A stretch of DNA of 64,000 bases from Escherichia coli (GTDB taxonomy: Bacteria > Pseudomonadota > Gammaproteobacteria > Enterobacterales > Enterobacteriaceae): the NCBI RefSeq assembly GCF_030013595.1, contig NZ_CP122768.1; one strand, given 5' to 3'. The notes beneath the pieces were generated by a model, which saw only the letters and a list, made by a program, of their open reading frames with translations, was not told the DNA's origin and did no database searches. Below are positions 6,388-58,362 of this stretch, piece by piece (position 1 is the first letter of the stretch; each line of letters opens with the position of its first letter). Position numbers and translations under genes: made by a program.

Positions 6388-6425
6388 AATATTCACTCAC
6401 TTTATTTGCATATTAATTCACAATG
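6388..6425 (-). promoter_or_regulatory. Tandem ARG boxes (ArgR operator) at carAB promoter P2
   Basis: Minus-strand reads TGTGAATTAATATGCAAATAAAGTGAGTGAATATTC immediately upstream of the carA start, matching the ARG-box consensus. Confidence 0.65.
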
Positions 6426-6741
6426 ATGACGTAAATCAATGCAAATCTGCTTACCGACGAATTTCTGGCAAACGGCGGCATTCTGGAGATATGGGCGCTA
6501 AAAGTCAACTTAATGGCGGGATTTTTTATATTATTTTGTGGCTCATGCATGTTTTACAGGCATTAAGCGACAAAAAGATCATATAACATGTTCTGGAAAA
6601 CGCTTGCGCAGCAAGAAGATTGCATGAAATAAAAATGAGCAGAAAAAAGTGGACCAGATGGTCAAAATTTACATTAAAACAACAAAAACAGAAGACAAAA
6701 CATGTAATTTTCAGCACTTGCATTAAATTTAAAAGCATAAC

Positions 6742-25874: not shown

Positions 25875-27368
25875 TTAGCCCCAGGTTACCGCTTCCGGTT
25901 TATCACCTCTGGCTTTCATTAATGAATCATTATCAATATCGGCTTTATACTTTAAGAACTTACCATACATTTGTTTTTCAATGTCTGGATTTTTACCTAT
26001 CTGATTAATGGTCTCAAAACGATCGGTTTTGAGGTTGTATAGATACTTTGGCTTATTGTTACGATCGATGATCATTTTCCAGTCACCATCACGTATCGCC
26101 CATTCGTCGGTTGGATCATCCTGGAATGGCATGTCAATTCCGAAGATTAATGGCTTTTCACGTTTTAGCGCCTTGTTCTCAAGGACAGGAACCAACGATT
26201 CGCCATCAAAAGTCCGGTCCGTCGGTAATTTGAAGTTCATCATTTTCGCCAGCGTAGGCATCCAGTCCAGACCATAAACAGGCGTATCTGAAACCATTCC
26301 CTTTGGAAGATGCTTTCCGTATTTAATAATCGCCGGAACACGGATGCCGCCTTCCCAGAGATTATCCTTGCGACCACGTAATCCATCAGTTTCCCCTGCC
26401 AAATTCAGTTCATAAACTTTACGTGCTTCACGGGTTACTGGGCCGTTATCACTGGTAAAAATAACGATGGTGTTATCTTCTTCACCCATCGCTTTGATTT
26501 TATCCAGTACTTTTCCAACCTGAGCATCCAGATAACTGATGTTGGCATAATATTCTCCTGGACCACGCCAGGGTTTATCCGCCCAGTCGCCATAAAATAA
26601 ATCAGGATGCTGCTTCTGATATTCGCTCATATATTGTGAGTACATGTCGAGGTATTTTTTGGGCGAAGCCAGGGGACTGTGCACTTCGGTAAAAGCGACA
26701 TAAAGGAAGAAAGGCTTACTGTCCTTTTTGTTATCCAACCAGTTGACGACTTCCGAACTGACATACTCACCACTCATTTTATCGGCACGAGGTGTGGGTT
26801 GCCCGTTACGCAACCAGCCCGTTGGATAGACCATGCCAAAACGGGGACGCTCCTTCGCATTATCCAGAGTAGCGTCGGTAACAAAACCCGCCGTATTAAC
26901 CAGTGAGTAATCAAAGCCCATATCTTTTGCCTGCGGCTGATCGGTGCGATCGCCGCCTGCATTCAGATGCAGCTTACCCATCATGGCCGTGTCGTACCCT
27001 TGCGCTTTGAGTAGATTAGCAATCGTGAGTTCATTACGCCCTAATGCCACATCTTTTCCCGTTGGGATCCATGAGCGTATGCCGGTACGAAATGGCATCC
27101 GCCCCGTTAATAACCCCGCCCGCGAAGGAGAACTTAAGGGAGCTGGTGCATAGTAGTCAGTAAATTTGACGCCCTCCTGGGCAAGCCTGTCAATATTGGG
27201 GGTTTTAACGATCTGATGTCCATATGTTGCTAAATCACCATAGCCTAAATCATCCGCCATAATGATGACTAAATTGGGTTGTTTAGTCTCGGCAGCTACG
27301 ACTGGATTAAAAGCATTCCCTGTGCAAACTGCAAGGCCGATCAAACTGGCCATTAATGTTTTCTGCAT
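25875..27368 (-). CDS. Periplasmic sulfatase, Ser-type (alkaline-phosphatase superfamily)
   Basis: Start placed at MQKTLMASLIGLAVCTGNA (signal peptide); sulfatase motifs LVIIMADDLGYGDL and S-S-P-S-R-AGLLTGR (27120-27134) with Ser at the formylglycine position. Confidence 0.8.
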   Translation of the reverse strand: MQKTLMASLIGLAVCTGNAFNPVVAAETKQPNLVIIMADDLGYGDLATYGHQIVKTPNIDRLAQEGVKFTDYYAPAPLSSPSRAGLLTGRMPFRTGIRSWIPTGKDVALGRNELTIANLLKAQGYDTAMMGKLHLNAGGDRTDQPQAKDMGFDYSLVNTAGFVTDATLDNAKERPRFGMVYPTGWLRNGQPTPRADKMSGEYVSSEVVNWLDNKKDSKPFFLYVAFTEVHSPLASPKKYLDMYSQYMSEYQKQHPDLFYGDWADKPWRGPGEYYANISYLDAQVGKVLDKIKAMGEEDNTIVIFTSDNGPVTREARKVYELNLAGETDGLRGRKDNLWEGGIRVPAIIKYGKHLPKGMVSDTPVYGLDWMPTLAKMMNFKLPTDRTFDGESLVPVLENKALKREKPLIFGIDMPFQDDPTDEWAIRDGDWKMIIDRNNKPKYLYNLKTDRFETINQIGKNPDIEKQMYGKFLKYKADIDNDSLMKARGDKPEAVTWG

Positions 27369-27387
27369 AATTATTCCCTGATGAAAA

Positions 27388-28149
27388 TTAGAAATCATAA
27401 CCAAGCATATAAATCATTTGATCGCCAAAACCATCGTAGCCCAACTTATTATCGAAATAACGCCACGTCACACTGGCTTTCCAGCGAGGATAGAACTTCC
27501 AGGCCACTGTTAAACCGCCATTTAGCCCATTCCGACCAAATTGTTGTTCCGCATAGGCATCATTTCTGTCCAGTTCTATTTCATTCCAGTTAGATAAAAC
27601 AAATTTTTCGTCAAATAACGTAAAAGGTAATACTGCTGTCCAGCCAACAACATAACCATTCCAGCCATTTGTTTGTCCATATTTGGCTGAGACGTAGTCT
27701 CCAGATTGATTATGTAATCCAATATACGGTTTAAAAAACCCCCATGAACCATTCCTGCCGAGGTAGCCCAAACCATAAAACATATCAAGATCGTCACCCC
27801 ATGAGTTATCCCATTGACCATAGATCTTGCCAAAGAAAGTCATATTGGAGTCAAAGAGTCTGACATGTGTCATAGCAGAAACGGTATGATTACGCCCCGC
27901 TACGGCATGGTTAAGCACATTGCTTTCATAAAATGAGTAAAACTCGGCTTCTTTAAAATTCACACCAAAGTCCGCAGTCACTTTCCATACTTCACCACGA
28001 TGAGTGTTAACGAAGCCACTATTCCAGTCAGCATAACCTGCATTTATTGAGCCAAAGGAACCTTTATATTCTAATGAAGAATATGCAGGAAGGTGATAGA
28101 AAATCGTTGTCAGGGCACACGCAATAAGAAGCCGTCTTTTGGCAGACAT
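27388..28149 (-). CDS. Outer-membrane channel, Tsx/OmpK-like family
   Basis: 253 aa, signal peptide, Trp/Tyr/Gly-rich beta-barrel composition, C-terminal ...MLGYDF resembling the Tsx terminus ...VGYNF; immediately upstream of the sulfatase. Confidence 0.6.
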   Translation of the reverse strand: MSAKRRLLIACALTTIFYHLPAYSSLEYKGSFGSINAGYADWNSGFVNTHRGEVWKVTADFGVNFKEAEFYSFYESNVLNHAVAGRNHTVSAMTHVRLFDSNMTFFGKIYGQWDNSWGDDLDMFYGLGYLGRNGSWGFFKPYIGLHNQSGDYVSAKYGQTNGWNGYVVGWTAVLPFTLFDEKFVLSNWNEIELDRNDAYAEQQFGRNGLNGGLTVAWKFYPRWKASVTWRYFDNKLGYDGFGDQMIYMLGYDF

Positions 28150-28665
28150 ATAATATGAATATGCTCTCCATTCATTGTTTTTATGGTTCCATAGAAATCA
28201 ATACATCAGATAATTCATTTTGATTAAGAACGACTCAGAAAGTATATTTAAAGGTGAATGGCAAAGCGTGATGGAGATCGCAGATTACTTTTACCCCCGG
28301 GTGTGGAGGTATCGTGTTTCAAAAAGTGTGTCTATTTTAAATATCACTCATTGATTTATAGACATTTTTTCCTTATAAAAAAACACTAAATTCTGTACAA
28401 GAATTATTTTGTATCTTCTACTACTTTCTCCAGTAATAACTCACCTTTCAGGCATAACTTAAATCTGCTTGTTCATAATCTCAATTTTTGTAAATGAAAA
28501 GGCACATAAGAGTTAAAATAAACAATGATCTAAAGATTAATTACGCAAAAATGCGAGGCGTCTTCAGGATTAGAATCGATAAAACAGAATGGGTTAAAGA
28601 GAGCGATATAATAGCGGCGGGTGCTTGAGGCTGTCTGTCTCAGGCATTAGCTGAACGGCAGATAG

Positions 28666-28720
28666 AGAAAAGCCCCGAGTGATATTTTACTATCAACCCG
28701 AGGCCCCCTATATGCAGAAC
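28666..28720 (-). ncRNA. sokC: sokC antisense RNA (type I antitoxin)
   Basis: Placed by positional correspondence to K-12 sokC overlapping the mokC start; not independently verified by structure. Confidence 0.4.
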
Positions 28721-28921
28721 ACATGTAGAGTGCCTCTTACTGACCGTAAGGTCAAGGAGAAGAGAGCAATGAAGCAGCATAAGGCGATGATTGTCGCCCT
28801 GATCGTCATCTGTATCACCGCCGTAGTGGCGGCGCTGGTAACGAGAAAAGACCTCTGTGAGGTTCACATCCGAACTGGCCAGACGGAGGTTGCTGTTTTC
28901 ACGGCTTACGAATCCGAGTAA
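28712..28921 (+). CDS. mokC: mokC, overlapping regulatory reading frame of hokC
   Basis: 69-aa frame MQNTCRVPLTDRKVKEKRA... ending at the hokC stop. Confidence 0.7.
   Translation: MQNTCRVPLTDRKVKEKRAMKQHKAMIVALIVICITAVVAALVTRKDLCEVHIRTGQTEVAVFTAYESE
28769..28921 (+). CDS. hokC: Hok-family membrane toxin HokC (Gef)
   Basis: 50-aa MKQHKAMIVALIVICITAVVAALVTRKDLCEVHIRTGQTEVAVFTAYESE, a Hok-family sequence. Confidence 0.85.
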   Translation: MKQHKAMIVALIVICITAVVAALVTRKDLCEVHIRTGQTEVAVFTAYESE

Positions 28922-28931
28922 GAGCAACGGC

Positions 28932-30293
28932 GGGGAGTGATCCCATAAGCGCTAACTTAAGGGTTGAACCATCTGAAGAATGCGACGCCTCGGTGCCTCG
29001 TTAAGACGATGCCTCGCGTTCTTCAATTGCGTTTTGTAGGCTGTCAGGGATACTGTCCCACGAATGGCCACCTGTAAGCTCCAGATGACCATTTTTGTTA
29101 TTCTCCACAACGAGTTAGTTCTTCTTTTCGGATCCGGCACTTCTGGGGGGAAATCCAGCGATGGCTGGATTATGTCGTCAATTAAAAATGCGGCGAGTAG
29201 ATTAGCAAATATCCACGCTTTCGCGAGTTCAGGTTCCTTTGCACGCAAAGCATCCAGGTGCAGCAAACTTTTGAGCCGCTTAAAAGCCAGTTCAATTTGC
29301 CATCGCAGACGGTAACAATCAGCCACTTGCTCTGCTGAATATTCATCTTCCGGTAATGATGTTAGCAATAGCACATGGCCCGCTGCTTCCAGCGTTTCCG
29401 CCTGAACTACTCGTCCTTTTCGACGATTCTCGCTGAGCAGTCGGGTTTTACTGATTAATGCTTTTTCGGGAGGAAGTGATACGGCAATGAGACGTGCCGG
29501 AAAGGGAGCTCCGGCTTTTTTATTACCTGAATTGCCTATCATTACAGTGGTTTCACCGTTCTTACCGCAATCCAGCCCGCGCAGAAAACCCATCATGTCA
29601 AAGCGCATTCCTTCTGCAGTTAACCAGCGCAATCCTCGCCAGTGAACCCGGACGATATAATCAGCTTCTCCAAAAGCAAGTGAGCGGATACATTCGGGAC
29701 GCGAACCGAATCCCCGGTCAGCAATGCGTATCTCGTCTGCCGTTTGCGCAAATCGGTCCAGCCGTTCAGCGTCTCTGCTGTCGGTTAGCTCAAAATCAGT
29801 GAACTGACAGGTATGAGGATCATATCCCATATGTAGTCGCCATTCAGCGCTGCCGCCCCCGGGCGCACTGATTGCTGTTCCATCGACAAGACGCAATCTC
29901 TTTCCGCTTGTACAACCCGTAACTGCGGCGCGTACAGCAAGTGTTTGTGCGGCAAGTATGCCAAACCAGTCGGCGGCATTCCGCAGCCGCTTCAGGAGAG
30001 CCACGTCAGATAATGTTGCAACGTCATGGAGCTGAGCCCATGCAGTGACTTCACGTAATGACATCCCCCCGGGGCCGTAAGCCAGCCCCAGACGTAGCAG
30101 AGTTGCAGCATCACGAATTTCGCGGCGGCGGGTTAGAGCCCCGGCATTACGTGCCGAAGTATCCAGTTCTTCGGGCTTACCAATATGGGCCAGAATTGCT
30201 GACCAGTTATCGTGAGAGTAATTCATCGGCACGTTAAATCATATCAGGCGTAATACCACAACCCTTAAGTTAGCGCTTATGGGAGTGATCCCC
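28932..30293. mobile_element. IS186 (IS4 family) insertion sequence, boundaries approximate (about +/-10 bp)
   Basis: Terminal inverted repeats GGGGAGTGATCCCATAAGCGCTAACTTAAGGGTTG (28932-28966) and reverse complement (30259-30293) flank one transposase ORF; about 10 bp after the hokC stop. Confidence 0.85.
28952..30226 (-). CDS. insL: IS186 transposase (IS4 family DDE), C-terminus variant relative to K-12 InsL
   Basis: MNYSHDNWSAILAHIGKPEELD...; Y-x2-R-x3-E-x6-K motif (YRLRWQIELAFKRLK) present; ORF runs 63 aa past DFPP. Confidence 0.75.
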   Translation of the reverse strand: MNYSHDNWSAILAHIGKPEELDTSARNAGALTRRREIRDAATLLRLGLAYGPGGMSLREVTAWAQLHDVATLSDVALLKRLRNAADWFGILAAQTLAVRAAVTGCTSGKRLRLVDGTAISAPGGGSAEWRLHMGYDPHTCQFTDFELTDSRDAERLDRFAQTADEIRIADRGFGSRPECIRSLAFGEADYIVRVHWRGLRWLTAEGMRFDMMGFLRGLDCGKNGETTVMIGNSGNKKAGAPFPARLIAVSLPPEKALISKTRLLSENRRKGRVVQAETLEAAGHVLLLTSLPEDEYSAEQVADCYRLRWQIELAFKRLKSLLHLDALRAKEPELAKAWIFANLLAAFLIDDIIQPSLDFPPEVPDPKRRTNSLWRITKMVIWSLQVAIRGTVSLTAYKTQLKNARHRLNEAPRRRILQMVQPLS

Positions 30294-30372
30294 GCCACTT
30301 TACAGGTGCTCGCATATCTTCAACGCACCCTATTTTTACCCAGGCCTGCCCACGGGCAGGCTTTTGGGGAGG

Positions 30373-31503: not shown

Positions 31504-31591
31504 CTTTTTTAAATTGCCCCTAGATGAATGCACGGGCGGAGAGGAAATTCCCCTTCGCCCGTGTCAGTATAATTACCCGTTTATAGGGCGA

Positions 31592-45242: not shown

Positions 45243-45285
45243 GTCGAAAAAAAAGCCCGCACTGTCAGGTGCGGGCTTTTTTCTG
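45243..45285 (-). terminator. thr operon attenuator (leader terminator)
   Basis: AAGCCCGCAC-loop-GTGCGGGCTT hairpin followed by a U-run on the minus strand, between thrL and thrA. Confidence 0.8.
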
Positions 45286-45300
45286 TGTTTCCTGTACGCG

Positions 45301-45369
<69 letters not shown>

Positions 45370-58211: not shown

Positions 58212-58362
58212 TGCCGGATGCGGCGTGAACGCCTTATCCGGCCTACAAACCAAGAAATTTCAATACGTTGTGAATCTCCAGGCCTGATAAGACGCGGTAA
58301 GCGTCGCATCAGGCATTGAGCACCGAATGCCGGATACGGCGTGAACGCCTTTTCCGGCCTAC
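58212..58362. repeat. BIME / REP cluster (three palindromic units) in ettA-nadR intergenic region
   Basis: GCCGGATGCGGCGTGAACGCCTTATCCGGCCTAC, an inverted central unit, and GCCGGATACGGCGTGAACGCCTTTTCCGGCCTAC. Confidence 0.65.

Follow-up and report, generated by a model that had tools for sequence, protein, structure and literature searches.

The hok/sok locus of plasmid R1 is the paradigm for type I toxin-antitoxin loci of the Hok family, with pairing between the 5′ end of the hok mRNA (the tac element) and a 3′ fold-back element (fbi), 3′ processing and Sok-triggered RNase III decay, a model of hok mRNA that is summarised in PMC9841398. In Escherichia coli K-12 the gef/hokC locus comprises hokC and a downstream 1338-bp insertion sequence (IS), IS186, which is considered to upset both fbi and the usual processing (PMC3562002), and it has been suggested that insertion elements inactivate the K-12 loci hokA, hokC and hokE (PMC12214031, PMC3562002). 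Here we analyse the hokC/mokC/sokC locus in a 64,000-nucleotide (nt) stretch of E. coli contig NZ_CP122768.1 (assembly GCF_030013595.1), hereafter the window, where IS186 again lies beyond the hokC stop codon. An IS186-split hokC as in K-12 is a published arrangement and already known. It is very likely that the window carries a non-K-12 version of this locus, in which IS186 has entered a hairpin target of its preferred type and the tac-fbi programme is lost, with toxin and antitoxin still encoded. We show how the locus is built, how often the site is occupied across genomes and how the mRNAs are predicted to fold; the effect on expression is inferred.

The closest counterpart is the K-12 MG1655 locus hokC (gef)/mokC/sokC::IS186A (b4412, b0018, b4413), which has the same hokC open reading frame (ORF), insertion point, 10-bp target duplication and orientation, a near-identical IS sequence, and a like displacement of fbi and the terminator. 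The window differs from MG1655 by three single-nucleotide polymorphisms (SNPs) where sokC and mokC overlap, by the loss of one G from an IS186 homopolymer, by a three-gene island upstream where MG1655 has nhaA directly, and by its genomic background, in which the nearest relatives have no IS at the site. The R1 locus and the window locus have in common a Hok-family toxin, an upstream mok, a cis-antisense RNA and, in the IS-free allele, a tac complementary to fbi; unlike R1, the window has its fbi separated by 1348 bp and mokC in the same frame as hokC.

IS186 at lon offers a second comparison, since there too one G-run/C-run target is hit repeatedly with duplications of ~10 bp. Insertion at lon knocks down the promoter and has a strong phenotype (mucoidy, Lon deficiency), whereas hokC::IS186 cuts the 3′ untranslated region and has no phenotype that we know of. 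SaiSree et al. are said to have found, in 2001, lon insertions of IS186 in both orientations. A third parallel concerns the transposase: in an IS630-family element of Roseiflexus, slippage at T5C5 depends on a nascent-RNA hairpin and gives transcripts minus one C (Penno et al. 2015, as relayed in PMC5009743).

The hokC locus and its IS186 target

This part of the E. coli chromosome covers dnaJ, hokC and nhaA, and relative to the K-12 map we read it on the opposite strand. The features on the hokC side of the IS are listed by position.

28607-28612, + strand: putative hokC promoter -10 hexamer TATAAT, read from the sequence, 7 nt upstream of the likely mRNA 5′ end
28619-28771, + strand: hokC mRNA leader, match to Rfam 'sok' RF01794 (118.8 bits, gathering score 59, E=1.9e-26, full model 1-157)
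28619-28630, + strand: tac element, hokC mRNA 5′ end GGGUGCUUGAGG, placed by the RF01794 boundary; pairs with fbi in the IS-free allele
28720->28662, - strand: sokC antisense RNA (antitoxin), mapped from K-12 annotation b4413
28712-28921, + strand: mokC frame, 69 amino acids (aa), an N-terminal extension in frame with hokC and sharing its stop (ORF list and K-12 annotation b0018)
28769-28921, + strand: hokC toxin gene, intact, 50 aa (Pfam HOK_GEF)
28907-28909, + strand: Tyr codon UAC inside UACG (TadA-type motif), by its position a candidate A-to-I editing site (Tyr to Cys)

The hokC product matches Pfam PF01848 (HOK_GEF) with E=1.8e-24 and 85.5 bits (cut-off 22), and by alignment hokC is 100% identical to K-12 hokC and to hokC of the IS-free strain considered below. 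The mok frame overlapping hokC upstream is present, as in the K-12 annotation, with the N-terminus MQNTC in place of the K-12 MLNTC, and translation of hok may be coupled to it. A cis-antisense Sok RNA is identified by homology to K-12 sokC, by the RF01794 match and by its predicted fold, a 9-nt free 5′ end followed by a hairpin and U-tail (-23.6 kcal/mol, z=-4.7), and would be expressed from the opposite strand. Taken together with the inverted repeats and target duplication described below, the Pfam match and the ORFs bear out what had been read from the sequence by itself, an intact 50-aa hok frame with an overlapping mok and an adjoining IS186.

The 5′ end of hokC mRNA is placed at 28619, 7 nt past the TATAAT hexamer, because the RF01794 match begins there. 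A consensus promoter scan called neither the hokC nor the sokC promoter, the positions given here being set by homology and the Rfam boundary only; the hokC -10 hexamer was missed because its -35 hexamer is poor. The sequence-only reading had given the locus as 28666-30293, but the transcript would start 47 nt earlier, at ~28619, and its 3′ part extends to ~30365. The match to the RF01794 model ('sok antitoxin', 157 positions) is on the + strand and covers everything between the 5′ end of the hokC mRNA and the start codon of hokC; the family therefore models the hok leader in sense and not the 59-nt SokC RNA of the opposite strand.

Beyond the hokC stop the locus continues with the IS and the elements on its two sides.

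28930-28943, + strand: post-stop hairpin, left half, with the first copy of the target duplication (sequence)
28944-30281, - strand: IS186, 1338 bp, transposase reading toward hokC, perfect 23-bp inverted repeats at 28944-28966 and 30259-30281
30282-30297, + strand: second copy of the target duplication (30282-30291) and hokC hairpin, right half (sequence)
30318-30330, + strand: fbi element CUUCAACGCACCC, pairs with nt 1-12 in the IS-free fold
30342-30365, + strand: intrinsic terminator of hokC mRNA, GC stem and UUUU, a 9-bp stem in the minimum-free-energy fold

The two 23-bp repeats are identical in every pair, where 0 such matches are expected by chance, and the element is flanked by a 10-bp target duplication, GGAGTGATCC, at 28934-28943 and 30282-30291, within GGGGAGTGATCCCC. 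It begins 22 nt past the hokC stop and the duplicated target 12 nt past it, which corrects the earlier estimate of an IS about 10 bp from the stop. By alignment the junctions and orientation are those of K-12, and the IS differs from K-12 IS186A by a single indel in 1338 bp, a G that is lacking at 29145-29150 (alignment column 645). Its transposase matches Pfam DDE_Tnp_1 (E=2.4e-26) and carries the IS4-family motif Y-(2)-R-(3)-E-(6)-K as YRLRWQIELAFKRLK, invariant in the alignment of relatives.

The target is a post-stop RNA hairpin, GGCGGGGA-GUGA-UCCCCGCC, that is present in the minimum-free-energy fold of the IS-free allele. In silico excision of the IS and one duplication copy restores GGCGGGGA-GTGA-TCCCCGCC, a perfect hairpin of the form G4-N6-C4 located 8-27 nt past the hokC stop. 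A target consensus G>=4 N3-6 C>=4 has reportedly been given for IS186 (by SaiSree et al. in 2001). Support for this consensus comes here only from the hokC target, the hokE target and the uniqueness of the motif in the window: the hokC hairpin is the sole G4N3-6C4 site in the reconstructed 62.6-kb IS-free window, and at K-12 hokE (NC_000913.3 606500-610000, junctions at 1496-1512 and 2840-2862 of that segment) the hairpin past the stop that corresponds to the hokC one, GCGGGGAGTAATCCCCGC, is occupied by IS186B, flanked by the 10-bp duplication GGAGTAATCC and in the orientation relative to hok opposite to that at hokC.

Two further observations concern the target motif. The plasmid hok homologues of pCFS3292-3 and pRHB03-C12_2 have hairpins GGGGAGAGATCCTC and GAGGGAGAAATCCCTC, which do not contain the G4...C4 motif and are therefore not expected to attract IS186. 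A Pseudaminobacter relative of IS186 (locus L007, 1892-1910) has on its right flank, the one flank seen, GGGGACCATCCCCC, again G4-N6-C4, and the target preference may be shared across the IS186 clade.

Displaced 3′ elements and the probable fate of hokC mRNA

Insertion between the hokC stop and fbi leaves fbi and the terminator on the far side of IS186, 1348 bp further from the stop, the terminator sitting 8 nt before the dnaJ stop (dnaJ is on the other strand). The sequence-only reading had proposed that the IS strikes the 3′ fold-back and spares the coding frame, with a comparison to IS-free loci as the check and an IS lying outside all 3′ elements of the hok mRNA as the outcome that would count against it. 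That comparison, made with the empty site of strain HCP5S3_I2, places fbi and the terminator beyond IS186, and the proposal holds: fbi is displaced, and the pairing of tac with fbi, predicted at P>=0.95, is lost.

Folding of the two alleles shows the predicted consequence. The IS-free HCP5S3_I2 hokC mRNA (400 nt) folds at -169.9 kcal/mol (z=-7.8), with both the post-stop hairpin and the terminator formed, and in the partition function nt 1-12 are paired with nt 352-364 (fbi) at a probability of at least 0.95. In the IS allele, where fbi is absent, nt 1-8 pair locally with nt 52-58 at each of three assumed 3′ ends; tac/fbi end-pairing is predicted for the IS-free allele only. The elements involved are shared with two plasmid hok loci (~74% identity), in which tac is identical, the hairpin (with one compensatory pair) and fbi are conserved, and similarity ends just past fbi.

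These features suggest the following course. IS186 has transposed into the G4-N6-C4 post-stop hairpin, where it leaves hokC, the mok frame and the SokC gene untouched and cuts off fbi and the terminator from the coding part of the hokC message. By analogy with the described hok mRNAs and from the predicted folds, tac-fbi closure would be lost and no stable, untranslatable, antisense-resistant full-length hokC mRNA would form. The transcript would instead read into the IS, its 5′ end pairing locally as is typical of the activated form, and, open to SokC from the start, it would decay and leave no reservoir of latent toxin mRNA. The delayed-activation programme of the hok system would in this way be lost, and the toxin and antitoxin genes retained.

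Several observations weigh against this account, and above all against calling the locus silent. K-12 gef/hokC with the same insertion is reported to be transcribed still and antisense-regulated, its mRNA ending inside the IS (PMC3562002). K-12 hokC mRNA is edited (A-to-I) at 9%, converting Tyr to Cys in HokC (PMC12214031); editing at this level is measurable, the mRNA must be abundant enough, and 'silent' is therefore too strong. Unlike R1 hok/sok, chromosomal hokC is not known to mediate post-segregational killing: a preprint (bioRxiv 10.1101/2025.08.07.668861, citing Pedersen & Gerdes 1999) gives IS-free ECOR24 hokC as producing neither post-segregational nor rifampicin-induced killing, and the programme that the IS may take away could thus have been idle already. 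The folds, finally, are thermodynamic predictions only. 'Silenced toxin', which the sequence-only reading had held to be probable, is unproven. On the same source, which says the opposite, we dropped the idea of IS-free hokC as a post-segregational killer. Separately, the candidate editing site in the window lies 35 nt upstream of the IS junction, so that local structure, and editing with it, might not be the same in IS+ and IS- alleles.

Two other explanations have to be set against the loss of the tac-fbi programme. The insertion could be functionally neutral, IS186 having landed in a hot spot at a hokC that was already no working killing module; we consider this possible but doubtful. The behaviour of ECOR24 as given in that preprint speaks for it, as do the fit of the site to the reported target consensus, its uniqueness in the window, and the frequencies described below, where both orientations are common and 70% of genomes are empty, as expected of a drifting polymorphism. 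Against neutrality stand the strong conservation of tac, hairpin and fbi between chromosomal hokC and the plasmid loci and the z-score of -7.8 for the IS-free fold, which argue that the IS-free architecture is under selection and that its disruption is unlikely to be without effect. A still less probable course is that the insertion rewires hokC instead of silencing it, the mRNA adopting the 'activated' fold at once, hokC being a constitutively SokC-titrated or leaky toxin gene, and, with IS186 in this orientation, convergent transcription of the transposase passing out of the IS and adding antisense RNA over hokC. This would agree with the local 5′-end pairing predicted once fbi is absent and with the K-12 gef mRNA, which is transcribed into the IS and regulated by antisense RNA (PMC3562002); the transposase ORF moreover stops 8 nt short of the IS end, no terminator is predicted between it and hokC, and a terminator-like site lies inside hokC (28863-28851, - strand). 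Rewiring is wholly inferential, however, and no HokC phenotype is known in K-12, which tolerates this arrangement too. Loss of the tac-fbi programme, with both genes kept, remains the explanation we favour.

Occupancy of the hokC site across E. coli

Occupancy was counted in 5426 complete E. coli genomes with 300-nt queries anchored in dnaJ, which exclude interference from the hokE paralogue.

IS186 in the orientation of the window and K-12: 680 genomes
IS186 in the opposite orientation at the same junction: 924 genomes
Empty site: 3815 genomes
Total assigned: 5419 of 5426 genomes

The site is thus occupied, in both orientations, in 1604 of 5426 genomes (~30%) and empty in ~70%. Junction queries of 200 nt had been dropped, since their counts (3815 + 819 + 939) exceed 5426 and the paralogous hokE::IS186 junction also matched at ~90%. 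Genomes with the orientation seen here include the K-12 and B laboratory strains and, among the matches listed, O25b:H4-ST131, O6:K2:H1 and isolates of river-water, chicken and pig origin.

The nearest genomes to the window belong to the empty class. The best matches to positions 20000-44000 are the pig isolates HCP5S3_I2 and LCP30S3_I5 (99.9% over 22.6 kb), both IS-free at this site, which cover only 94% of the query because IS186 is lacking there. HCP5S3_I2, with flanks 99.8-99.9% identical, has exactly the empty junction that we reconstructed and also the hokC-leader SNPs specific to the window. The gene order of K-12, in which dnaJ, IS186A and hokC are followed directly by nhaA beside sokC, is not that of the window, where three additional genes intervene and homology to K-12-type genomes resumes only at ~28539.

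24501-28149, - strand: three-gene island between nhaA and hokC, lacking in K-12 (comparison with K-12)
27388-28149, - strand: Tsx/OmpK-like porin of the island (Pfam)
25875-27404, - strand: sulfatase of the island (Pfam)
24501-25781, - strand: 426-aa protein of the island, no Pfam match; RefSeq label IS1/IS1595 N-terminal zinc-binding domain

These data bear on the claim, made from the sequence by itself, that the arrangement implies a K-12-like lineage. Inheritance from a K-12-like ancestor, which would make the insertion a mark of lineage, would explain why position, duplication, orientation and IS sequence are the same as in K-12 MG1655. It is nonetheless highly improbable: K-12 lacks the island of porin, sulfatase and 426-aa genes, the closest genomes have an empty site, the same orientation recurs in the serotypes and sources named above, the opposite orientation occupies the junction in 924 genomes, and precise excision of IS186, which is unstable at its lon hot spot, has been reported (PMC3861542). 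The data indicate that insertion at hokC is a recurrent hot-spot polymorphism and, by analogy with lon, it is probably reversible. With the polymorphism recurrent and the closest relatives empty, IS186 at hokC is therefore unfit as a lineage marker, and the K-12-like lineage has to be given up.

The transposase C-run and its C-terminal domain

The single G by which the window IS186 differs from IS186A falls in the transposase gene, at a run that separates two reading frames.

28952-30226, - strand: transposase ORF, 424 aa (canonical 370 aa), ending 8 nt from the IS end (ORF list)
29145-29150, G6 on the + strand: homopolymer, C6 in the transposase sense, where K-12 has 7 (alignment)
29153-29170, - strand: hairpin in the transposase mRNA, AUCCAGC-CAUC-GCUGGAU, directly 5′ of the U/C run (cross-element pairing)

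The ORF is a fused 424 aa because the run is C6 instead of C7. Exactly this protein is found on 130 contigs elsewhere, and 145 of 2720 IS186-bearing records (E. coli genomes) hold an exact C6 copy, and 2593 hold an exact C7 copy; one of the C6 records is a K-12 MG1655 assembly from re-sequencing (NZ_CP032667.1 3864962-3865041), with C6 in the copy beside hokC. Either the run mutates unusually often or homopolymer sequencing errors are frequent there, and the G6 of the window could be such an error. Conservation of the tail in the other frame does not depend on the C6 allele.

The extra 63-aa tail aligns with the in-frame C-termini of IS4-family relatives of 425-442 aa, with S372, W374, R375, A387, I388, E410 and R415 invariant. 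All seven short-form relatives sampled (loci L005, L007 and L009-L013; 60-89% identity, annotated at ~360-370 aa) encode the same domain in the +1 frame, open for 61-63 codons and running into the inverted repeat. The junction between the frames is a U(n)C(5-7) run in all elements, followed by UGA in six of the seven relatives, and IS186 has AGA and L012 has GGA at that place; in L009 the UGA follows a CCCC run ~15 nt further on. Unshifted L016 reads TTT CCC CCT GAA where shifted L010 reads TTT CCC CCC TGA A, a difference that would fit one additional C having been kept. Between IS186 and L012, its 89% relative, the tail differs by 11, 5 and 22 nt at codon positions 1, 2 and 3, the pattern expected if the +1-frame tail is translated.

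The hairpin directly 5′ of the run may be conserved as well. Across the alignment 86.7% of its cells pair, compared with 18-43% for slid controls, and two pairs are compensatory, in a set of only 11 elements and with hairpins also in two unshifted long-form relatives; the amino acids that the hairpin encodes differ among elements. The conserved domain in the +1 frame, placed behind a hairpin and a U/C run, suggests programmed recoding, either transcriptional slippage or +1 frameshifting. The IS186 clade would thus resemble the Roseiflexus element in having a hairpin directly 5′ of a U(n)C(5-7) run and a C-terminal domain in the frame that is reached by losing one C. Unlike that element, IS186 belongs to the IS4 family, and the CCC_UGA found in six of the seven relatives also fits +1 ribosomal frameshifting. 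CCC_UGA is a +1 shift-prone site. For IS186 itself, +1 ribosomal frameshifting and transcriptional slippage would fit the sequence alike.

We tentatively propose, at somewhat less than even odds, that the annotated 370-aa InsL is no more than the 0-frame product, that the 424-aa form, with a domain conserved in relatives across Alpha- and Gammaproteobacteria, would require loss of a C from the transcript or a +1 ribosomal shift at the hairpin-flanked U(n)C(n), read as CCC_UGA in relatives and as CCC_AGA in IS186, and that the C6 copy of the window would be a hard-wired fusion. Absence of frameshifting is described as a hallmark of the IS4 family (PMC2266710), and it is stated that no IS employing +1 ribosomal frameshifting had been identified (PMC5009743). 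The literature that we searched contained no paper tying IS186 to frameshifting, slippage or recoding, which is not proof of novelty, as GeneTack clusters of +1 DDE_Tnp_1 genes exist.

Four further RNA families match in the window at the Rfam gathering score; none of them is unusual at this place in the E. coli chromosome.

6421-6473, - strand: ES003 sRNA
31504-31581, - strand: tpke11, upstream of dnaJ
45246-45365, - strand: Thr operon leader
58281-58359, - strand: naRNA4

Taken by itself, hokC::IS186 restates a published feature of K-12 and matters little; what is added is the species-wide polymorphism and the lead on recoding. The polymorphism means that natural near-isogenic IS+/IS- pairs exist, which could directly test the loss of fbi at a chromosomal hok locus, inferred since 1999. 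If the proposed recoding is true, the IS4 family would include a clade with programmed frameshifting, contradicting its stated hallmark, and the activity of IS186, including at the hokC and lon hot spots, would be set by slippage efficiency together with C7<->C6 mutation. This would change the view of IS186 transposase expression and of the frequent lon::IS186 events in laboratory evolution.

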